DNA of 64,000 bases from Pecten maximus (Eukaryota). The position numbers were made by a program, and so were the translations under genes. The DNA is taken from NCBI RefSeq assembly GCF_902652985.1, contig NC_047015.1, positions 1,674,001 through 1,738,000 on the forward strand, read 5' to 3'. The notes beneath the pieces were generated by a model that saw only the letters and a list, made by a program, of their open reading frames with translations, made no database searches and was not told the origin of the DNA. This document shows positions 17,345 through 61,296 of this stretch, piece after piece. The stretch's first letter is position 1; every line of letters begins with the position of its first letter.

Positions 17345-17935
17345 AGACATAGACACACACAGACACACACAAACACTGATGTTATCTCTACTGACATAGA
17401 CACACCCAGACACTGATATCATCTCTACTGACAGAGACACACACACTGATAGTATCTCTACTGACAGAGACACACACACTGATAGTATCTCTACTGACAG
17501 AGACACACACACTGATAGTATCTCTACTGACAGAGACACACAGAGACACACACAGACACTGATATCATCTCTACTGACATAGACACACACACTGATAGTA
17601 TCTCTACTGACAGAGACACACACACTGATAGTATCTCTACTGACAGAGACACACACAAACACTGATGTTATCTCTACTGACATAGACACACACACTGATA
17701 GTATCTCTACTGACAGAGACACACACAGAGACACAAACAAACACTGATATCATCTCTACTAACAAAGACACACACAAACACTGATGTTATCTCTACTGAC
17801 AGACACACACAGAGACACACACAGACACTGATATCATCTCTACTGACATAGACACACACAAATACTGATGTTATCTCTACTGACAGAGACACACACAGAG
17901 ACACACACAGAGACACACACAGAGACACACACAAA
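17345..17935. repeat. CA/GA-rich compound minisatellite (ACACTGATAGTATCTCTACTGACAGAGACAC...)
   Basis: Constant core with variable (AC)n spacers. Confidence 0.93.
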
Positions 17936-18144
17936 CACTTACTACTCACAACCCACTACAACAACTACTCCCAATTACATGATAACACAAATAAAATTAC
18001 AATTATCAGTGGAAAATCTAGTTTTTATGAAACAGAATTTTAAGAAGAATTTTTTTTTCTAAAATTACAACTATGATTTCTTAATTTTTTCTAAGAAAAT
18101 CAATCAAAATAAATCGCATATAAAAGTTGAAATGTATGCCTGTG

Positions 18145-26676: not shown

Positions 26677-27937
26677 CAGGGTTGCCAACTCACGCACGTG
26701 AGACGAAAAAGTCACGTAAAAACGTCCCTAAAATGTCCCTTCTCACGTTGAAGCAATCCTCACGTAACGTGAGGTACAAATCTCACACATTGATTAAGTT
26801 TTCTCAAGTTGCCTCACGCGAAGCCATGAAATCGACAACTTTAGCTTGGGACTGGTCAAAGGGGAATAACTCTTACAGTTTTTGTAAAGATTACACCAGG
26901 CGTCGCGCTTCACATCCGGTCGGTAGCGACGGAAGCATGTTCGGAGAGCTGACTTCTAAACGCGATAACTAAGCTTAGGCCTACAAAAATAGTGAGTAAT
27001 ATTCACATTCTCAGTTTATAACTGAACAATCCCTTTGATATTTCGTGAAATATGCCGTCGCCTAAAAGGAAAAAGATCGATATCTGGTCCACTAAGCCTA
27101 AGCTCGCCAAGTTCAAAGAATCGCCATGGGAAAAAAATCACGATTGGTTTTCTAAACGTGTTTTCGTAAAGTAAAGTAGCATGCCTATTGCAAGTTGTTT
27201 AAAGCCAAGTTTTCGATCAGATAAGCGTAGTATGTGATATAAAACGCCACATTTTGTCAGTTGGCATTGAGTTTGTTTTACAGGTAAAGGTTTATATAAT
27301 TACCACAGCTAAAAATTAAACTCTTGACAGATGATAATTAATAAGTAATTGCATTTTATTTTTACTTTTGCAAGACAGTCGGGGAATTCTATATGGCAGT
27401 GACGGACAAAATGATTGCAAAGTTCCCCCTGCATAATCCTTCTTTGTCGAATTGACATGGATTTTTTGGTACCTAGCCATAGAGCTATATACTTTATATT
27501 ATCTACTAGAAATTAAATCCAAAAATCTCAAACGCCTACATGATATAAATAGAACAGTTATCCATTGCTTCAAAACATTTTATAATCTTAACCCTAAAAC
27601 TATTAATAATCAACTTACAAAAACTATTGGAACTTATTTAGTTCTTTAAGTTCCATAACTGGCAGCTAGATTACATATAATGTCACCAAGGATAGAAGGA
27701 TTCACTTGAGGAGAAAATTATTGACTATCAGCTTGCTCCAAAGGAGGAGATTTCAAAGCAAGAAGATATATTAAATAAATGGCTTAAATATGTGTTAATG
27801 TCTGATATTTTTTCTACAACATTTAATCAAATAATAAAACGCCGTGATGCCGTGACGTCGTAAAAAAGTCTCACACATTGCAAGAGCCCAATGTGGGAGA
27901 TCTCCCACATTGGGCTACTTACAGGTTGGCAACCCTG
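26677..27937 (+). mobile_element. Internally deleted hAT-type DNA transposon with a 6-bp TSD, in ERLIN intron 5
   Basis: TIRs CAGGGTTGCCAAC / GTTGGCAACCCTG, flanked by the direct repeat CGATTG on both sides; subterminal (CT)CACG repeats; frameshifted transposase N-terminal remnant at ~27052-27270. Confidence 0.85.
27052..27270 (+). pseudogene. Degenerate transposase N-terminus (NLS plus Zn-finger remnant)
   Basis: Read across frameshifts: MPSPKRKK...KFKES.WEKNHDW...AYCKLFKAKFSI...CDIKRHILSVG; resembles the BED/TTF-type zinc finger of hAT transposases. Confidence 0.6.
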
Positions 27938-28032
27938 CGATTGTAAAGCAAATAAATCCCTCTGGACAAATCCTTTCTGTCTTTGAGTATGCAAGATAAG
28001 AAATGGAATCAAAATAACTAGAGACAGCTTAC

Positions 28033-28220
28033 CAAACAAATCAATGTAGACCTCCTGGAGATTGTTCATGCTACAGAACTGGTTGAGTTCGTGGTGAACC
28101 TTGTTGTAGATGAGCGTTTTATCGTAGTCAGCAGTGTAGTTTCTCACAATGTCGAACACAGCATTGATATCCAGCTTATTGACAACTTCTATGCGGTCAA
28201 AGTATATCATTACTCCTCCA
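28033..28220 (-). CDS. ERLIN1/2: ERLIN coding exon 5 ([14 protein letters not shown]...HHELNQFCS...QEVYIDLF)
   Basis: Highly conserved SPFH core; tag| acceptor and G|GTAAG donor; 188 nt, phases 2/1. Confidence 0.95.
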
Positions 28221-28375
28221 CTAGTAACGAAAAATAATCTCATTAAACGTACTTCACTCAAAACAACGCAAATCCTGGAATGATAGCAATAGCGGAAATA
28301 TCTGTCCTTCCACAAGGACTCAAATTTACCTAGTGTGACTTGAGTCAGGACTTCATAGGACATATTTTGGATATA

Positions 28376-29269
28376 CAGTCGAATCTGTCCAAACGACCAT
28401 CTCTATTTAGCGACCCTCTGTTCTAAGCAACCATTTCAATTCCTCCCGACCGTTTTCGCTATATATTTTAACTCTATTAAGCGACCCTCTGTTTACGCGA
28501 CCAGCGACCACAATTTTTCGTTCCCGTGATAACAATAACTCTCCAATAAGCGACCAGAAGTCTCCAAAATGCCTTACATTACCATTTCGCTTTAATAACA
28601 CCCAAGTAGTTTTACTTTTCGTGCAAAAGGACGGGAGAGGAGGCGAAGAGACGGTCTAGAATTCTGACGATTTTCAGACGTTTTATATACGATATATCAA
28701 TTTGCATGCGAAATATAACAATGAAGGAATGCATAAACAGATAACTTACTGTTAAATCGTGATTTGTTATCTTTTTTGAGACATTAAAACAGATATTTGC
28801 CAGTGAAAAAGTCACCGTTTTTAAAGTAGGAAATGCAGGAATGTAAATAATAATCGGAGCGGATATCCGCACCAGGTTTTCAGGAATTAAAAATATATAT
28901 ATAAATAATTTGAAAGTAATCTAATTAGCCAATGAAATTATATTTCTCATGTTAAATCGATGTATTTTGCTATGCTGAAAGAATTTTAAAAAATACATAT
29001 AATGATGAAAAATTAGCACAGTAATAATTATATAAAAAAAAAAAAAAATTTAAATAAATAAATAAATAAAAGTTTTTTGTTTTGTTTTATTCAAAGTGGT
29101 GGTTCATTTTTCATATATATTATAAACCATTATTGCCAATTTATAAAGTGAATAGAAAGCTTATGAACATTTATTAAATTTAAGATACCATCTCTATTAA
29201 GAAACCACTCTCCATTAAGAGACCGTTTTTCAACTTCCCTTGAGTGGTCGCTTAATACAGATTTGACTG
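28376..29269. mobile_element. Tc1/mariner-superfamily (pogo/Tigger-like) MITE in ERLIN intron 4
   Basis: TA|CAGTCGAATCTGT...ACAGATTTGACTG|TA TIRs with TA duplication; repeated subterminal TAAGCGACC motifs; no transposase ORF. Confidence 0.85.
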
Positions 29270-36009: not shown

Positions 36010-36918
36010 TGTCAATAACATTCTACTGTCTCAGTTCTCTCATATAAATAGTACACTACAGGTGTGTCTCTATATAACATTCTACTGTCTCAGTTCTCTC
36101 ATATAAATAGTACACTACAGGTGTGACTCTCTATATAACATTCTACTGTCTCAGTTCTCTCATATAAATAGTACACTACAGGTGTGTCTCTATATAACAT
36201 TCTACTGTCTCAGTTCTCTCATATAAATAGTACACTACAGGTGTGACTCTGTCAATAACATTCTACTGTCTCAGTTCTCTCATATAAATAGTACACTACA
36301 GGTGTGTCTCTATATAACATTCTACTGTCTCAGTTCTCTCATATAAATAGTACACTACAGGTGTGACTCTCTATATAACATTCTACTGTCTCAGTTCTCT
36401 CATATAAATAGTACACTACAGGTGTGACTCTGTCAATAACATTCTACTGTCTCAGTTCTCTCATATAAATAGTACACTACAGGTGTGACTCTCTATATAA
36501 CATTCTACTGTCTCAGTTCTCTCATATAAATAGTACACTACAGGTGTGACTCTATATATAACATTCTACTGTCTCAGTTCTCTCATATAAATAGTACACT
36601 ACAGGTGTGTCTCTATATAACATTCTACTGTCTCAGTTCTCTCATATAAATAGTACACTACAGGTGTGACTCTCTATATAACATTCTACTGTCTCAGTTC
36701 TCTCCTATAAATAGTACACTACAGGTGTGTCTCTATATAACATTCTACTGTCTCAGTTCTCTCCTATAAATAGTACACTACAGGTGTGACTCTCTATATA
36801 ACATTCTACTGTCTCAGTTCTCTCATATAAATAGTACACTACAGGTGTGTCTCTATATAACATTCTACTGTCTCAGTTCTCTCATATAAATAGTACACTA
36901 CAGGTGTGACTCTGTCAA
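36010..36918. repeat. Minisatellite, 59/61-bp unit (TAACATTCTACTGTCTCAGTTCTCTCATATAAATAGTACACTACAGGTGTG...)
   Basis: About 15 copies, bounded by TGTCAAT at both ends. Confidence 0.97.
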
Positions 36919-40383: not shown

Positions 40384-40419
<36 letters not shown>

Positions 40420-41639: not shown

Positions 41640-42360
41640 AGGCGTACGGGTCATTAATGGAATACAGGTGTACGGGTCATTAATGGTAAACAGGTGTACG
41701 GGTCATTAATGGTATACAGGTGAATGGGTCATTAATGGTATTCAGGTGTACGGGTCATTAATGAGATACACAGGTGTGAAAGTCATTAATGATATAAACA
41801 GGTGTACGGGTCTTTAATGGTATATACAGGTGTACTGGTCATTATTGATATAAACAGGTGTGAAAGACATTAATGATATAAACAGGTGTCCGGGTCATTT
41901 ATGATATGAACAGGTGTACGGGTCATTAATGGTATACAGGTGTACGGGTCATTAATGGTAAACAGGTGTACGGGTCATTAATGGTATTCAGGTGTACGGG
42001 TCATTAATGATATAAACAGGTGTACAGGTCATTAATGATATAAACAGGTGTACGGGTCATTAATGATATAAACAGGTGTACGGGTCATTAATGGTATACA
42101 GGTGTACTGGTCATTAATGGTATACAGGTGTACGGGTCATTAATGGTATTCAGGTGTACGGGTCATTAATGGTATTCAGGTGTACGGGTCATTAATGATA
42201 TAAACAGGTGTACGGGTCATTAATGATATACAGGTGTACGGGTCATTAATGGTATAAACAGGTGTACGGGTCATTAATGATATAAACAGGTGTACGGGTC
42301 ATTAATGGTATACAGGTGTACGGGTCATTAATGGTATACAGGTGTGCGGGTCATTAATGA
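41640..42360. repeat. Minisatellite, 26-28-bp unit (ACAGGTGTACGGGTCATTAATGGTAT)
   Basis: About 26 copies, ending ~17 nt from a splice donor. Confidence 0.96.
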
Positions 42361-42377
42361 TAAACAATCATCCTTAC

Positions 42378-43085
42378 CATCTGTGTTACTTTCAGTCTTC
42401 TCCAATTTACGGTGTTTGGTGCCAGGAGACGGAGCATCCTTCCTTGCTGTGGAGCTGACGATTTCGTCCGATGAAAATGCTGGATTTGAATGTGAATGTT
42501 TGGAAGATTTTACATAAGCCCTTGCGACACCATCAGTTTTCGTGCTAGATGAACTATGTCTATTTTCAGGTTTTTTCAATTCACCTTTGTATTCATAAGA
42601 TCGCACGTGCACACTGCCACGCTCGTCGTCATCACTGACGGGAAGGTTGAGTTTCAGTTCGTCCTGATTCCGCCACTTATTGCTGAGTTCGTGCTCCCTG
42701 GATTTCTCTTGCATTGCACGAAGTTTGGCACTATCGGTTGCGCACTGTGTCGACAGAGGCTGGTCGTTAAAGTCTAGAGATTTGCTTTGTTCCTCAGAGT
42801 ACCTAGGACCACCCTGGGGAGGTGGAGGGGGCGCCTTCTTTTGTCGATTATGTACCTCCACGGATGCAGTTCTTCCTCGATCCTCATTTCGGGGTCTTTC
42901 CTCTTTCCTTGTTCTCTCAAACGCCGGCGATTCCCTTCGTTTGCGTTCCTTCTTTCTCTTGGTACCTGTGAGATCACTGTGTGTGCGTTTGACCTTCGAC
43001 CCCTTTCTGACCGAGTCCTCATCGTTCCTTCTATAATTATGGTAGTACTGCTCCTCATCCTGGTACTCCACTATAATAGAACGAT
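42378..43085 (-). CDS. Uncharacterised membrane protein, coding exon 4 (charged, disordered)
   Basis: gtgcag| acceptor; DRSIIVEYQDEEQYYH...ESNTD; G|GTAAG donor; 708 nt open, phase 1/1. Confidence 0.82.
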
Positions 43086-43181
43086 CTGCACAAACAAAAC
43101 ATCAACATGTAACATTATAGATTGTGTTACGGCGATCCTCGCATACTGGACGTCCATTTACAAAGTGAGAAGAACAGAATA

Positions 43182-43388: not shown

Positions 43389-43649
43389 TACATCATATAG
43401 AATACGAGATAAGAATGACATAGATGCTATGATAGAGAATAGCCGAGAGTACTAATACCGAAATACTATTAATAGATATAGGCTAGCTAATAGATTTACT
43501 CATATAGGAAGAACGTGGAAATATTGAAGAACAAAGGCAATCTAAGTTGGCATATGTTCATGCATTTCGCTTTCGTTAATTATTCCTTCACATTTACATT
43601 ACCATTGAACTATAAATGACGTATACTATTGTTGTTATACTAGCTGTAC

Positions 43650-43802
43650 CTCGCTGTCCGCCGAAGTTGTATGGGTACACACCCCCGTGTACACCCCCGT
43701 GTACGTAGTTGGAGTTGTATGGGTGGTACACGTGACTAGGCACCTGTTGGCTGTGGTACAGCTGCTGCATGTTCCCCTGGTACACCATGTGGCCATTGGC
43801 CG
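43650..43802 (-). CDS. Uncharacterised membrane protein, coding exon 3 (Y/H/Q/G-rich)
   Basis: tttctag| acceptor; SANGHMVYQGNMQQLYHSQQVPSHVYHPYNSNYVHGGVHGGVYPYNFGGQR; G|GTACAG donor; 153 nt, phase 1/1. Confidence 0.72.
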
Positions 43803-45444
43803 CTAGAAACAGGCGGGTACGGTAATTAGTCAATAATTAATTAATGCGATACAGTGACTCAGCGAGGTTTAAGGTAGTGTAGTATCGATTCTTGCATAAT
43901 TGTCAAGAGGTAAGATCAATGTTTTCTCTGGGAATTGATTAGCGACTACTACAAGCAGAGTTCAGTAACGAAGAGATGGAATATAACCTACAAGATGAAC
44001 CTAATGACGTCACAAGGAAAATCAAATTATGTTTTGTCTTAATATGAAAAAGGCAAACGAAAATATTTTTATAGAATGGTAACTTTTGTAGGTCTGAGGT
44101 TCCTGTCAATCATAAACGATAAACAGGAGGAAATATCCCCATTCTAAATAGTATATATCGAGTAATTCATAAAACTGCTTCAAACTGCTGTCTCGTCCTT
44201 CTTAGGCTCCTTGATGCATTATTCATAAAAAGACTTTGCATACAGTGTCACCTTGCAGCAAATACCTTCCAGTAATTTAAAACATTAATTACATATTTCT
44301 TAGAAGTAATGTCCACCAATTTAATAACAGTAATCACATTTCCGTCATACGATTAAATGTCTATAGCAGTGACTGATGACAGAGAGAAAACTTGTCCTAA
44401 ATGTCATGTCCTGTTACCTAATTAGAATGTACAGGTCGTCTAACATATTGGGATATACTCTCTAACTCATTCCATCATTTTTATTATTCAATATTTTAAA
44501 CACTGACTTCTATCTAGCTTCACTGATGATTTTTTGATACATACTGAATTCATCACTGAATTGATAAAAAAAAAATAAACAATAGACAATGAAAAAAAAA
44601 GAGTAAAGAATAAAATATAAAAACAATGCCACGGTGACACGAACACCCAGTAAAACAATACAATACAAAACAATGATAAAGGAAATCAGCGCGGTATGTC
44701 ACACCACACGGCGTACGTGCGTAAACCCACGGTTTACTCGGCAGATGGCGCCTAAGTGACGTAACATCCGGGCCCCAATCACAGTTTGTTTCCAAGCCCC
44801 AGTCACAGTTTGTTCACATTTCGACAGATTTCAAAACACTTGCTAATAACACACAAATATAGAACTGCTTACGTCCGGTACAGAATAACATGATGTTTAC
44901 CTACAGAACCTTTACTGTAGACCTGTCTTAATGTATTAATTTTAACAAAGTCCCTACAGGGACGGTGGTTATATATACATCAAACCCTTATGTTCAATAT
45001 TTACAGAAGAATCTGACGGAAAGCACTACCTCCAGTCTTATACAATCCTGTGAATAGTTTGTATACTATTCACAGCATTCTCCAATATAAGTAGTTTGTA
45101 TACTATTCACAGCATTCTCCAATAGAAGTAGTTTGTATACTATTCACAGCATTCTCCAATATAAATTTTGCGCCATAATGACATCAGTACGATATTACTG
45201 TCCCAGGACTAAACACAGGCTCACAATAGCAATGTATTCGTCACCCAATTTAGCTCTATAGTCAGGTCAGAACACAGCCATTTCAGCGTACATACAAAGC
45301 TTGTTAATTTGTATACAGATACAAGATATATATGTATAACATCATAATTATGCACAACATAATTTATACAAAACAGTTCAACATTTTCCATCACAAACGA
45401 CATCACATGCACGGAACTACAAAAACATGCCATTCAATATATGG

Positions 45445-47050: not shown

Positions 47051-47459
47051 ATTACCCATACCTACCAATAATAATTAGCTACTGATTTAAAACATATATT
47101 TAACGCTTTCCTCGCGTAATATTCAAGGTACAAGAAAGTTTCACTACACAATAATACTTTATTATTATATCTATTAGAACAGACGATGTGTCCAAGTATC
47201 GTCGACCCCGTGCGTTTATAGGGCTGTGTTCATGATTCAAGAGAAGAAATACTCAGCAAAAAATCCAGATCAACATAAAGAAAATAATTTGTTGACCTGA
47301 ACATACAAAATAATAATGCAATGAAGCTATTGCGAAACATAGGGAAACTATTAAGCGATAAAGCAAGAAAAACAGATACAATGTATACATATTAGTGGTA
47401 AGGCCATAGAAAACACTGGTTAGTAAGCCAGGGTACAGGACTAGTCACGAGTAACCTAC

Positions 47460-47770
47460 ACTGGGCTAGTCTCTGCTCTGACGTGGCTCTCTGTAGAGAC
47501 GGAGCCCGCTTTGGTCTATCAACGTAATAGGCATCGGACGGACCTGTCGAGTACATAGACGGTGCTCCCATCCACAGTCCTGCGCTCCCGACCTTGGGAA
47601 GCCGGGGGTCAACACGTGGTTCCATTCTGGGGTCAATGCGAGGGTCAAGTCGTGGATCAAGGTGAGGGTCAAGGCCATTACCAAAGTTGCTATTTTTACT
47701 AAGACTTGCATCTGTAGTTGAATTCAAATGCTGAAAGCTTCTCCCACGGTTTTTGCTATCACGCATTCGC
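47460..47770 (-). CDS. Uncharacterised membrane protein, coding exon 2 (basic juxtamembrane segment, DPR repeats)
   Basis: ttacag| acceptor, phase 2 in; RMRDSKNRGR...LDPHLDPRLDPRIDPRMEPRVDPRLP...; T|GTAGGT donor phase 1 matches the next exon. Confidence 0.75.
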
Positions 47771-48154
47771 CTGTAAAGAAATACAATGTCGTTAAACAAA
47801 ACATGCAGCCCAAACCAAATAATATATTTTAGTTATTGCAGCCAAGGTGAACCCTTTTCCAACATGCGGGTCAACCGTTCTCACCTCCGGCCGGATAAAA
47901 CACACGTAACACGTGATTCTCTGGCAGTTCTTTCGATATCCGATTATGTCTGGGTTGTTTGTCCTCTGTCCTGTTAAAGTTGATACATAACCATACATAA
48001 ATATACACTTCATTACAATGATTACATCTACATTTACATTTGGTCCATCACTACAGTGATGATTATTCAACGACATAGACAGGCTGATAAAAGATAACAT
48101 TTACAGTGTACATGGATAAAGTCGCCCTTAGCTTCAAAGTCGCCCTTAGCTTCA

Positions 48155-49472
48155 GTTTAAAGCTTGCTAGGGACCCTGAAGTGACGATATCTGGCGGTAG
48201 AGAATTCCAAATCTGTATGATATTTAGAAAGAAGCTGTATTAAAAGTAGTCTGTGGAATGAGGATTGTTGATACAGACAGGGTACAGGGATGAGCGTGTA
48301 GTTTTTACTGGTGGTTTCATGTCAAATCATGCGTCTATTCACAAAAGTTGGTTGTGTATTTAATAAAACCTTGTAAGCCTGATGTTATCTCTGTGTGTTT
48401 GTCTGATATGTTGTGATGGCGGTCTGTAATGTAACAAGCAGATCTTCTTTGTACTCTTTTTTGGAATATTTTTATAATGTTAGAGTGTCAATGTGTCTGT
48501 CCCAGTTCATGTTGTGTGATAATGTTACCCCCAGATATTTAGCATATTTGATTTTTTTTCCAAAGTGTGACCTTTAGGTTTGTAGGATGAGATGAGTGGT
48601 GACCTTTAGGTTTGTAGGATGAGATGATTGGTGACATTCGCTTGCTTCCTATCAGTGAGAACCTCGCCACTCTGTAAGGACCTATTGAAGATCTGTGTGA
48701 GGGTTGGTACAAGCTCAGTGGGAACCTCGCCACTCTGTAAGGACCTATTGAAGATCTGTGTGAGGGTTGGTACAAGCTCAGTGGGAACCTCGCCACTCTG
48801 TAAGGACCTACTGAACATCTGTGTGAGGGTTGGTACAAGCTCAGTGGGAACCTCGCCACTCTGTAAGGACCTATTGACGATCTGTGTGAGGGTTGGTACA
48901 AGCTCAGTGGGAACCTCGCCACTCTGTAAGGAACTATTGACGATCTGTGTGAGGGTTGGTACAAGCTCAGTGGGAACCTCGCCACTCTGTAAGGACCTAT
49001 TGAAGATCTGTGTGAGGGTTGGTACAAGCTCAGTGGGAACCTCGCCACTCTGTAAGGACCTATTGAAGATCTGTGTGAGGGTTGGTACAAGCTCAGTGGG
49101 AACCTCGCCACTCTGTAAGGACCTATTGACGATCTGTGTGAGGGTTGGTACAAGCTCAGTGGGAACCTCGCCACTCTGTAAGGACCTATTGAAGATCTGT
49201 GTGAGGGTTGGTACAAGCTCAGTGGAGAAGAGTTTGAGTATACGTCCATAGATTTCACCTGGACAAGTGACTTTAGAAGGGTCAATATTGTTTAGTAGTG
49301 TATAAGTGGCATTTTTTGGAATGTTACTTGGTTGTATTTATGGTTTGTTGTCCTGTCCCACTGTGAATACAGAGTGATATTGTTTGTGTTATCGACTAGT
49401 AGTCATCTGATCTTAATGGCCCTTCGCTAGTGTTGTCTTTTTCCAGGTTTTTGTTATAACTTTAGAATTTCT

Positions 49473-49515
<43 letters not shown>

Positions 49516-49790
49516 TGTGACATAAGATGTTAACTAGATAAGGCCAGTTGGATTTACGGTTTTTTCCTTTCTGTAAAATTCGTTTTGTCCTCTTTATGAT
49601 TTCCTTACGGAGGATTGTTTTTGTTCATTATCTTAGATTGTTTGTTTCCTATTAAAGCTTTATAATTCCACGGGATCTGCTCTTTATTTGGGTTTATTTA
49701 TTTTGTTGGGACAGTTTCTTGCATCTGGTATCTTTCTTAAAAGTATGGAAGTTAGAAGTATTCAGACCAGAATGATTTTGATTCATTTTG
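48155..49790 (-). mobile_element. Decayed non-LTR retrotransposon (L2/CR1-type LINE ORF2 remnant, RT core deleted)
   Basis: Minus-strand fragments in LINE order: ELVPTLTQIFNRSLQSGEVLTDRKQANVT, KGHTLE..AKYLGVTLSHNMNWDRHID, VQRRSACYI, YSFFLNIIQIWNSLP...LASFKL. Confidence 0.75.
48652..49224. repeat. 63-bp unit x9 derived from LINE ORF2 sequence
   Basis: TCAGTG at 48652 and 49219 are 567 bp (9x63) apart; the minus strand reads PTELVPTLTQIFNRSLQSGEV. Confidence 0.97.
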
Positions 49791-50514: not shown

Positions 50515-51512
50515 GTGTACAGACCCTCAGGACGTCGCACCCAATAAACGTCTGTACAGACCCTCAGGACGTCGCACCCAATAAACGTCTGTACAGACCC
50601 TCAGGACGAGGCACCCAATAAACGTCTGTACAGACCCTCAGGACGAGGCACCCAATAAACGTCTGTACAGACCCTCAGGACGAGGCACCCAATAAACGTC
50701 TGTACAGACCCACAGCACGAGGCACCCAATAAACGTCTGTACAGACCCACAGCACGAGGCACCCAATAAACGTCTGTACAGACCCTCAGGACGAGGCACC
50801 CAATAAACGTCTGTACAGACCCTCAGGACGAGGCACCCAATAAACGTCTGTACAGACCCTCAGGACGAGGCACCCAATAAACGTCTGTACAGACCCTCAG
50901 GACGAGGCACCCAATAAACGTCTGTACAGACCCTCAGGACGAGGCACCCAATAAACGTCTGTACAGACCCACAGCGCGAGGCACCCAATAAACGTCTGTA
51001 CAGACCCTCAGGACGAGGCACCCAATAAACGTCTGTACAGACCCACAGCGCGAGGCACCCAATAAACGTCTGTACAGACACACAGCACGAGGCACCCAAT
51101 AAACGTCTGTACAGACCCACAGCACGAGGCACCCAATAAACGTCTGTACAGACCCTCAGGACGAGGCACCCAATAAACGTCTGTACAGACCCTCAGGACG
51201 AGGCACCCAATAAACGTCTGTACAGACCCTCAGGACGAGGCACCCAATAAACGTCTGTACAGACCCTCAGGACGAGGCACCCAATAAACGTCTGTACAGA
51301 CCCTCAGGACGAGGCACCCAATAAACGTCTGTACAGACCCTCAGCGCGAGGCACCCAATAAACGTCTGTACAGACCCTCAGGACGAGGCACCCAATAAAC
51401 GTCTGTACAGACCCTCAGGACGAGGCACCCAATAAACGTCTGTACAGACCCTCAGGGCGAGGCACCCAATAAACGTCTGTACAGACCCTCAGGACGAGGC
51501 ACCCAATAAACA
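50515..51512. repeat. Minisatellite, 37-bp unit (GTCTGTACAGACCCTCAGGACGAGGCACCCAATAAAC)
   Basis: About 27 copies. Confidence 0.98.
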
Positions 51513-51674
51513 TCTACTTTACACTTTAAGTATATCTAAAATATCAGCTCGACCAGCCCAAGCTTTACGAATGTCATTACCACAGGACTCTATAGATTTT
51601 TCAAATTGTTTAATGAATTGTCGACCTGTGTTGCTCGGCACCAGTCACATGTGTCAATGGAAGGGACAAGCTAT

Positions 51675-57965: not shown

Positions 57966-58707
57966 TATGTCGAGGCACTATTCGTAGTAAACTAAACCAT
58001 TGTCAGATTGTATCAATAATTTCATTGGGAAAATAATGTCTAAAGTTTCATTATAAACAAAATAATTATTATCATAATGGTGATGAGGAAATGCTTTACA
58101 GTTGATAATATTACATAATTGAGGCTCGGGGATTGGCGTTGTTGGGTGAAGGAGACTATAGACTGGTATTTGTTTTATAAGACAAACTAGCAGGGACACA
58201 CATCAACTCAATGGTGGTCAAGTGATGGAACACTTCGGACAATCAACTGAACAGTACAGATGTCACCAAGCTTTGTCCTCTTACCGAAGTTCTTTATAGT
58301 CTCACCACAACTACGTCCCAGGTCTGTATTGACAGAAACTTATGTCAGGATATGTAAAACATATTGTCACTGTCCGCTACTCTATCTCCTAGTCGACAGA
58401 TTTTATCTGGCTCCGACTACAAATCTCCTAGATTTCTGTCACGAGGTGACAGATTATATATCGGTATGTGTAGGACTGAAACATTTGTAATGTTTACAAA
58501 CAGATTGTGTACACTATCAGACATTACCCTGTAATATAAACTTTCGTTTAAATCAGTCAATGTACCGTGCTTGTGATTCTTTAGCACGTTAATGGGGTCA
58601 AGTTCCTCTCGAGGAAGAAAGGGTTAAATATTTATAGTAACCACAATTAATTATGTAATATTAGTATATAACCACATTCTAGACGTTAATATTATGACTC
58701 GTCAGCA

Positions 58708-59134
58708 ATTAGGTGTAATTACACGTGTGAGAGGACAGATCGATCGTAATTAGGTGTAATTACACGTGTGAGAGGACAGATCGATGGTGGTAAGTCCTGA
58801 TCGGGTCGGGGTAACTAGGTGTAATTACACGTGTGAGAGGACAGATCGATGGTGGTAAGTCCTGATCGGGTCGGGGTAATTAGGTGTAATTACAAGTGTG
58901 AGAGGACGGATCGATGGCGGTAAGTCCTGATCGGGTCGGGGTAATTAGGTGTAATTACAAGTGTGAGAGGACAGATCGATCGTAATTAGGTGTAATTACA
59001 CGTGTGAGAGGACAGATCGATGGTGGTATATCCTGATCGGGTCGGGGTAACTAGGTGTAATTACACGTGTGAGAGGACAGATCGATGGTGGTAAGTCCTG
59101 ATCGGGTCGGGGTAATTAGGTGTAATTACACGTG
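58708..59134. repeat. Two-length tandem repeat (short ~39-bp and long ~65-bp units; TAGGTGTAATTACACGTGTGAGAGGACAGATCGAT core)
   Basis: About 8 copies with or without a GGTGGTAAGTCCTGATCGGGTCGGG insert. Confidence 0.93.
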
Positions 59135-60634
59135 CAAGACGACGGTGGTGGGGTCTATTGTCACCCAGATAATCAAGGATTACACTGGTAAGGATATAAA
59201 CATAGGTCTAAATACGTAAGGGGAAATGTCAGTGTCCCAGTGTTGTTAACGGTGGTGGGAGGGGCCGGGACAATGTAATACAAAACCTCCGTGTTAATAT
59301 GGGTGATCCCATACCCGACATATTGGAAACAACCCCGTAAATATTCCACGTATGGTGGTGTGTCCTGCTACACAGGCATGTGTACTTGTCACACGTAGTT
59401 GAATACAGCTGTGTTATTTGTTTCAATTAAAAATATTTACCTGTCGAAATTAATAGATGGACTTCGTAGTGGAATTCCTAGAATGCCGAAACCTGCCTAA
59501 CTCCGGGTACACCACGGGTGGTAAATTCCAGGTGATACGGTAACATATCCAATCGAAAATAAATTATTTGATGATTAATCCTTATAAAGTGTATGTTTAT
59601 ATTCACACACACACATATCAATTGTCCCAAGTTGTACTGGCTCGTGAGACACCTCCCTACGGCCCGGTACCCTCCTGTACACGCGGGCCACACGGTATCA
59701 CTATAGACCGTACTTATGTTCGAGTTGGTGAATAATGCCCCTAGCAGGCAAATAAATTCGCTCATGTGGAACGGAGGCGGTCCATCACACTAGTGTCTCT
59801 GCCAACATTTCATACGGGCTTTAAAGAAATGTTGATATTAGTACTTGTGTTGTCTATACTCAACACCAGTGTGTGACGGAGTTATCTGTGCTGTAAGTCA
59901 AACACAAGGAAATATCCCTTTCATACATTACCCTACTCCTATAACATAAGAGGCCGCTGGTCGGCTCTTTTTCTATCGGATATTACGGCGCCTGTCAAAA
60001 GTATCTCGCCGTGTAAAACCTCTAACATTGTTGGAGTAACATTACCCGTACCTGACACTTGTCAAGAATAATGTCAAAGTCTTCAGGTGAAGCTTTTCAA
60101 AAAAGAATATACATATGTGCATTTGTTAATTGTCGTTGAGTTGAATGTAGTTGTTATGGGACAGAATACCTGGTAGAGATCGATAATTCAGTAATACACA
60201 GGAACATATGTCCTAGTACACGTGGGACCTATGTATAGTTATCTAGTGTGTTATAACAGATGTTACAATACCATCAAACGTAACATCTCTACAACATAGT
60301 TATAACATGTGGGATGGAGTCCCAGACCTGGTCCACCTTCATCAGATAGGTAGAGATTGGGCCCAAACCTTACTTTATACAGGCGTGCCTTGAAAGTGAT
60401 ATGGGGTTTGTATAGTATTGGGGTATTGTACCCCTGTCCTCCCTCCACTGTAATCCGATACCGACCTTAAACGTAGACATGAACAAAACCACGGCCTTTT
60501 TACAGGCGTTGTCAGAGTTGACGAAGTATGCGTTACTACACGCGTGAGTGACAGCGTTAGTACCGCCGATAGGTACTGTGGGGTCACCACGTGGTTACTA
60601 AACGTGAAACTAATACATTGTAATTGTGTCTAAT

Positions 60635-60848: not shown

Positions 60849-61296
60849 AAACTTATTATTACATTGTCATTGTGTCGAATACACCCTCAAACATTACATT
60901 GTAATTGTGTACAACCTCAACCATCCCACAATGACGTGTGTAGAACCATGACGATATAATATGACAGGTATTTCTTTGTGTGGAAATGTCGACATTCCAG
61001 TACAGCTGGACCGAACCATGTCTCTTCCTTGTTACTGATCTCAGTCACAAGGAACACACTTAGATATAATTCGATATAGCTTCATTGTATATTATATATA
61101 TGACACCAATATGGACGGGAACACTGCGAATCTACTCACACCCTTCCTCGCACATACACACTCTCACACTCCCCCCCCCCCCCCCCCCCCTCAAAACACA
61201 CACACACACACGCTCACAGCTTCACACAAACGTACTCGCACACTCACCATCATATACACACACACACTCACAACCCCCCCTCCCCACTAACTATCG

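Follow-up and report, generated by a model that had tools for sequence, protein, structure and literature searches.

Background

For most minisatellites the single-copy ancestor has been lost, and their origin therefore has to be guessed. The array described here, nine units of 63 bp lying head to tail inside a dead LINE retrotransposon, raises the question of how a stretch of unique coding DNA becomes a minisatellite and whether the answer extends to the arrays that surround it. The original prediction held that the array and the rearrangements next to it arose by microhomology-mediated duplication and deletion followed by expansion, and that they are direct local evidence for the birth of the other arrays. 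The LINE itself is a passive substrate, the sole special value of which is that its single-copy ancestor can be read.

The model of Haber and Louis (1998), as it is cited in PMC6947457, PMC3389668 and PMC13167724, is one in which slippage or unequal exchange duplicates a unique segment flanked by repeats of 5-10 bp. Ahmed and Liang (2012; PMC3389668) report 7,276 TE-derived human arrays, 300 of them with flanking repeats of 5-20 bp, mostly 7 bp, and retrotransposon-derived tandem repeats have also been described in maize (PMC3648361). In the present work we utilise the reading frame and conserved residues of the LINE to reconstruct the birth of the 63-bp array, and compare its ends with those of the other arrays in the window, by which we mean the whole 64-kb stretch of DNA that was analysed.

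Methods

The relatives used throughout are 238 distinct long ORF2 proteins, drawn from two clusters of phmmer matches, and the ORF2 profile was made from the first 120 of them. The phmmer search gave 178 matches, and among the 150 matches listed 45 fit the ORF2 profile. Array ends were called for 47 non-redundant arrays with a period of at least 15, leaving out the array that is cut by the start of the window; for the end-overlap test the five arrays with a period above 70 were dropped, leaving 42, and higher-order repeats were likewise left out where their period exceeded 70.

Results and discussion

A decayed LINE relic

The relic in which the array lies (Table 1) retains the linker, pre-RT region, thumb (YLG) region and C-terminus of ORF2 and has suffered internal deletions, at least seven frame changes and several stops. 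Matches to the ORF2 profile are colinear along the minus strand (best E=6e-13 and 2e-10), and tblastn with the nearest ORF2s covered 49724-48156; by profile and tblastn together the relic reaches from at least 49724 to ~48138. In its linker, pre-RT helix, YLG box and C-terminal motifs the relic is colinear with the APE-type non-LTR ORF2s of molluscs and lancelets, from which it differs in its many frameshifts, in having no RT core and in its endonuclease region, which, like the 5' end of the element, was not found by the ORF2 profile or tblastn over the window. Outside the relic the profile gave a single weak match in the window (E=0.45), tblastn matches of the 238 ORF2s were confined to 48-50 kb, and no second copy of the element or of the 63-bp unit was found within the 64 kb.

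The relatives are annotated with RVT_1 and often also with the endonuclease family PF14529, and the named ones include proteins of Nucella lapillus, Pinctada imbricata and Branchiostoma belcheri. The nearest are ~58% identical over the compared blocks (63/108 residues) and serve as a proxy for the family consensus, not as the consensus itself. A Pfam search of six pieces of the window gave no RT or RVT_1 match, as is expected because the RT core has been deleted (see below), and 11 Pfam families that matched the repeated open reading frame were set aside as repeat-driven noise. A PDB sequence search with the flank and first units returned one unrelated match (E=1.3); a first homologue search, of residues 1-62 against long proteins, returned six candidates, none significant.

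The relic may belong to the CR1/L2 group, and by analogy with the 3' ends of CR1/L2-type elements the (ATGTAR)3 sequence is its probable tail. CR1 and L2 rank among the commonest LINEs of molluscs (PMC10294476). The best candidate for a target-site duplication is a common word of 8 bp in AT-rich DNA, which is not convincing. The G39 run, which reads as C on the element strand, may be a short C-run that has expanded, and further long G or C homopolymers lie at 40386-40417 (32 bases) and 61171-61190 (20 bases). G4-type deletions are a conceivable link from G-runs to rearrangement; the G39 run, 250 bp away, was nevertheless set aside as a cause of the array or the deletions, since it is intact and touched by no junction.

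Several stretches of the minus strand resemble host exons. At 47392-47770 there is a candidate exon of 125 open codons, with a good acceptor (TTTCTTTACAG followed by G) at ~47771 and a DPRL-like four-residue repeat, which had no Pfam or Atlas match; if it is real, the intron upstream of it contains the relic, and exon and relic share an orientation. Open frames of 257 and 80 codons (42331-43101 and 43597-43836), without a Pfam match, resemble exons of a disordered, charged protein. At 27830-28402 an exon-sized match to SPFH/Band_7 (E=0.0008) falls below the curated cut-off, and the sequence resembles erlin.

Table 1. The LINE relic, its 63-bp array and its other rearrangements (positions in the window).
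Feature	Position	Strand	Basis
Decayed non-LTR (LINE) retrotransposon relic	48022..49724	-	120-relative ORF2 profile, tblastn, RVT_1 in relatives
G39 homopolymer in relic (C-run on element strand), just before KF(W)SY motif	49473..49511	+	
Single-copy ORF2 flank 5' of array (QYHSVFT...LLNNIDPSKVTCPGEIYGRILKLFS), heavily decayed	49226..49388	-	profile columns 341-394
5' microhomology arm CCACTGA, from S-T-E codons	49219..49225	-	
Minisatellite, 9x63 bp + 7 bp; unit = ORF2 profile columns 395-415 (TELVPTLTQIFNRSLQSGEVP)	48652..49225	-	TRF and profile
3' microhomology arm from P-T-D codons, reading TCACTGA after one later substitution	48652..48658	-	
Single-copy stub past array (DRKQANVT, columns 417-424), ends at deletion junction 1	48630..48653	-	
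32-bp tandem duplication, 2x32+5; unit encodes PIISSYKPKGH	48567..48635	-	TRF, period 32
YLG box region (AKYLGVTLSHNMNWDRHID)	48478..48546	-	ORF2 profile
Deletion junction 2, ~47 codons lost, 3' of YLG box	~48470-48485	-	relatives, n=209
ORF2 C-terminal part (VQRRSA...; ...SFFLNIIQIWNSLP...)	48138..48454	-	profile and tblastn
Deletion 3, ~13 codons lost	near 48403	-	tblastn
18-bp perfect doublet at ORF2 end, end overlap 1 bp	48118..48154	.	
Probable 3' tandem-repeat tail, ATGTAA ATGTAG ATGTAA	48022..48039	-	sequence

The 63-bp array and its ends

Tandem Repeats Finder (TRF) describes the array as 9.1 copies of period 63 with 97% matches and no indels; its length, 574 bp, is 9x63+7, and the units diverge pairwise by 2.2%. 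On the minus strand it reads ...GRILKLFS-(TELVPTLTQIFNRSLQSGEVP)x9-TDRKQANVT, with the final P of the last unit mutated to L. That the array is built from a piece of LINE ORF2 in a dead LINE had been predicted and is confirmed by TRF and the profile, and its 5' end (TTCTCCACTGAG), junction (GTTCCCACTGAG) and 3' end (GTTCTCACTGAT) read as they had been given. Within the window the unit is confined to this one locus of 574 bp, and over these 64 kb it does not behave as a multi-locus satellite family.

Both flanks of the array run on, in the ORF2 register of the profile alignment, into single-copy ORF2. The ends of the array are thus its original ends, and the extra 7 bp an ancestral direct repeat as opposed to a clipped unit; this register is the strongest point of the locus. 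The word CCACTGA is common to the 5' end and the unit junctions. In the terminal copy it is altered by a CTC codon at column 415, a position held by Pro in 236 of 237 relatives and by Leu in none, which identifies the CTC as a later substitution. The direct repeat shared by the array ends, originally put at the six bases CACTGA, is therefore real and was a full 7 bp at birth.

An overlap of at least 6 bp has a probability of 0.002 under random blunt duplication, and of 2272 positions in unique DNA close by, none gave as many as 6 bp at a period of 63. Pairs of 7-bp direct repeats 15-70 bp apart are common (7-14 per kb), so the arm alone leaves unexplained why this site fired or expanded.

An open frame of 243 codons on the minus strand spans the 5' flank, the nine units and TDRKQANVT. 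A function for it was considered and rejected, as 63 is a multiple of three, the frame is inherited and two other frames are open too; all five distinct substitutions in the array alter an ORF2 residue, and there is hence no sign of coding constraint. One variant base is common to units 2, 5 and 6, which points to stepwise growth. Nor does the 63-bp unit form a stable hairpin (z = +0.8 to +1.9), and hairpin-driven slippage was discarded because no strand folds better than its shuffles (6/6).

We conclude that the array probably arose by neutral microhomology-mediated tandem duplication (MTD) of the Haber-Louis type, followed by stepwise expansion, within an old copy of the LINE. A non-LTR element inserted and decayed, its S-T-E and P-T-D codons chancing to hold CCACTGA twice, 63 bp apart, both of which are visible in the relic. 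During replication a nascent strand or a displaced Okazaki flap with the downstream arm at its end, re-annealing to the arm upstream, would then have recopied the 63 bp, and the resulting doublet would have grown over several steps, as the pattern of units 2, 5 and 6 records, perhaps by slippage or unequal exchange. The features that the MTD model calls for are seen here: the head-to-tail length is n units plus one arm both in the array (9x63+7) and in the neighbouring doublet (2x32+5), the arms are longer than chance would give (P=0.0006 for at least 7 bp and P=0.006 for at least 5 bp), and, by the protein proxy, the ancestor was single-copy with its original flanks.

Loss of the RT core and a second duplication

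Immediately past the array, ANVT (profile columns 421-424) abuts PIISSYKPKGH (columns 648-658), with a frameshift. In the relatives these positions are separated by a median of 223 residues (n=224), so that deletion 1 has removed ~223 codons (~670 bp) of the RT core and with them every RT motif before the YLG box: NYRP, QHGF, DFxKAFD, SGVPQGS and ADD. The predicted joining of ANVT to the region before the YLG box is thereby borne out, as is the predicted 32-bp duplication bounded by GTCAC, a doublet of 69 bp that holds this word three times and has one mismatch.

The GTCAC at 48635-48631 derives from the V-T codons left of deletion 1, and those at 48603-48599 and 48571-48567 derive from the G-H codons to its right. 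Since the words come from opposite sides of the break, deletion 1 itself created the pair, and their positions suggest that the deletion came first and the 32-bp duplication second. The ~670 bp loss would thus have put two GTCAC words within 32 bp of each other, after which the same kind of misalignment as in the array may have doubled those 32 bp. At the breakpoint the visible overlap is CC (48631-48630, from the last T codon and the first P codon), as read in the relic's own DNA. Pro is frequent in the relatives on both sides of the deletion (175/237 and 131/223), and a clean join of PI over PI would be 2 nt longer than what is observed.

These features bring in a fairly unlikely alternative, in which the first junctions were made by break repair, through either polymerase-theta end joining or MMBIR. 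In one variant deletion 1 and the extra 32 bp are a single event, a templated insertion from the adjacent flank in which the extended GTCAC end primes once more at the same site. The extra 32 bp do lie exactly on the deletion junction and copy the neighbouring flank, and the sequence alone fits both a templated insertion and a later duplication by slippage; flank-templated insertions at deletion junctions, and microhomology, are given in PMC7368036 as signatures of TMEJ, and the relic has at least three deletions. Against this, the two-step model needs just the visible GTCAC pair, whereas the one-step model needs an unseen homology at the landing site, and the 63-bp junctions carry no inserted bases. 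The TMEJ-dependent duplications described in PMC7368036 were of 1 kb to 1 Mb, not 63 bp, and nine copies require slippage or unequal exchange anyway. A junction sequence such as this one cannot by itself separate slippage from polymerase-theta repair.

Deletions 2 and 3 and the 18-bp doublet formed no part of the original prediction. The doublet is a counter-example to microhomology arms inside the same relic; of the relic's three duplications, two bear arms of 5-7 bp. Elsewhere, the long ORF2 relative P0200 carries at residues ~556-586 a 16-residue duplication (SYILHGHTLENVSSAN) over the segment that corresponds to the 32-bp doublet of the window.

The timing of the duplications

An expansion at columns 395-418 is found in none of the 236 ORF2 relatives covering the region, which serve as a protein proxy, and among the 238 long ORF2s a tandem repeat of any kind occurs in only three, in none of them at the array segment. 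Val at column 398 is present in all nine units but in just 1 of 237 relatives; likewise, Pro at column 655 is present in both 32-bp copies but in none of 225 relatives, 216 of which have Leu. Of 38 conserved columns the relic as a whole still has the majority residue in 26, where the relatives show a median agreement of 97%, and in its 5' flank 6 of 12 conserved columns within 368-394 differ. On the simplest reading, the rare residues common to all copies place both duplications after decay had begun, and amplification of the array most likely postdates the decay of the LINE copy, so far as these residues can date it. The 'derived' residues that the duplicated stretches share could, however, come from a defective parent copy.

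A related and improbable explanation is that the array and deletions arose in a parent element, by reverse-transcriptase slippage during insertion or in a non-autonomous deleted master, and were carried in by retrotransposition. The probable 3' tail is still present, and arrays borne by TEs are known, as in the LTR12 case (PMC3389668). Yet the units are ~98% alike while their flanks are heavily decayed, the duplicated stretches share residues that are almost absent from the relatives, none of the 236 relatives has the expansion, and the window holds no second element or unit.

The dead ORF2 DNA of other LINEs has likewise become tandem arrays over this pre-RT segment, in 7 of the 45 LINE-like matches among the matches listed, from a search whose repeated query favours such matches. 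They comprise P0028 (21 aa x2.9), P0029 (56 aa x3.9), P0033 (53 aa x2), P0020 (94 aa x2.8, named Sparganum proliferum) and P0006/P0040/P0058. P0028 has the same 63-bp period (21 residues) in a different register, columns 399-419 as compared to 395-415 in the window. Because these copies belong to different families and registers, they are independent of the window array. A hot spot at the pre-RT segment was rejected, the 7/45 coming from a biased query and the unbiased set giving 0/236.

The other arrays in the window

Tandem arrays of at least three copies fill 27,568 bases (43%) of the 64-kb window, which holds dozens of different minisatellites with periods of ~16-65 bp, and this density is more striking than the 63-bp array itself. 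It leads one to expect ~0.7 arrays in 1.1 kb, the size of the relic, and the LINE is therefore not a preferred site but merely a readable one. None of the other arrays matched ORF2 by profile or tblastn, and the idea that they derive from ORF2 was dropped because ORF2 tblastn matches lie only at 48-50 kb.

End overlaps of 4-12 bp are found in 11 of 42 arrays, where uniform phase predicts 10.1; removal of the three LINE-internal repeats leaves 9 of 39 (9.4 expected), and the 25 clean arrays give 5 (6.1 expected). Overlaps being no commoner than uniform phase, these arrays lend nothing to the claim that the locus is direct local evidence for their origin; the ends of old arrays may have eroded, which makes the test weak and leaves the extension unsupported, not refuted. 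Decay of array ends with time is reported in PMC13167724. For duplication, the proposed mechanism is supported at the locus itself, where a single-copy LINE segment bounded by short repeats was duplicated and then expanded and the 32-bp doublet fits the same scheme; its extension to the other arrays, about which one locus says little, is unsupported.

Near whole-copy phase (overlap of -5 to +3), 14 of the 25 clean arrays are found against 6.7 expected (P=0.001, one of 30 bin or subset tests), an excess consistent with arrays born by duplication whose arms were short or missing or have since eroded. The ten doublets have end overlaps of -2, -1, -1, 1, 1, 1, 2, 3, 5 and 12. Two of them, the test case and a 2.5-copy array, overlap by at least 5 bp (0.07 expected), and of the remaining eight none does. 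A search for hidden arms flanking 19 near-flush arrays gave a mean longest common word of 3.8, against 3.7 for mismatched pairs (P=0.23). The left and right flanks of two larger arrays share a word, at 36015-36913 (TGTCAAT, 7 bp) and at 50516-51515 (AACATC, 6 bp, offset), in each case different from the internal junction; these words are possible eroded arms and are not significant over the set. Nested higher-order repeats occur at 58707-59145 (41/65/106/171/236 bp) and 17346-17939 (33-183 bp).

It is very improbable that the first duplication was independent of homology (blunt or with 1-3 bp) and that the 7-bp overlap is a coincidence picked among many arrays. The excess near whole-copy phase and the eight other doublets, which look like chance, would accord with such a reading, but the chance of the overlap is still only ~0.03 once the choice among 47 arrays is allowed for, and arms recur in the relic as noted above. 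We hold it equally remote that sequencing or assembly error created or inflated the copy number: long G-runs and short tandem repeats of near-identical units are known to cause such errors, but the units are free of indels and carry variants, some private and some shared, whose pattern is non-random, and dozens of diverged arrays surround the 63-bp array.

Comparison with known systems

Microhomology-mediated duplication with stepwise expansion, which we favour for the 63-bp array, places it close to the MTD or Haber-Louis cases as PMC13167724 describes them, in which a single-copy segment between short direct repeats gives n units plus an arm at a neutral site, expansion following and the arm eroding as it ages. 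The difference is one of scale and host, a 63-bp unit in nine copies here as against the short units that PMC13167724 followed in microbes and humans, mostly as 1x to 2x or 3x alleles; there is no difference in kind from the model. The array also resembles TE-derived human minisatellites (PMC3389668, and Jurka and Gentles 2006 as cited) in that it is nested in a TE and its ancestor can be taken from the consensus of that element. It is unlike those described in PMC3389668 in its substrate, the ORF2 coding DNA of an invertebrate-type LINE, the frame and conserved residues of which date the event. Both models considered in PMC3389668 together account for just 6% of the arrays there, and this small share cautions against generalising from the 63-bp array. 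Our literature search found no report on arrays from such an ORF2 segment, which is weak evidence of absence.

Conclusion

The duplication model itself is unchanged by this locus, having been published since 1998 and, according to PMC13167724, tested on many genomes in 2026. What the ORF2 frame reveals is the original ends of the array, its 7-bp arm, its probable amplification after decay and the deletion that made the arms of the second duplication, and the locus can serve as a clean worked or teaching example and as a practical template for assays in animal genomes rich in arrays. A wider reading, which we put forward as speculative and rather doubtful, is that this lineage converts unique intronic DNA to minisatellites unusually fast through a bias in replication or repair, such as weak flap processing or heavy use of polymerase theta, and that dead LINEs, perhaps in their pre-RT segment, are dated records of such births. 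If this were true, a census of LINE-nested arrays would yield birth rates, arm-length spectra and the rules of doublet expansion in an animal germ line.
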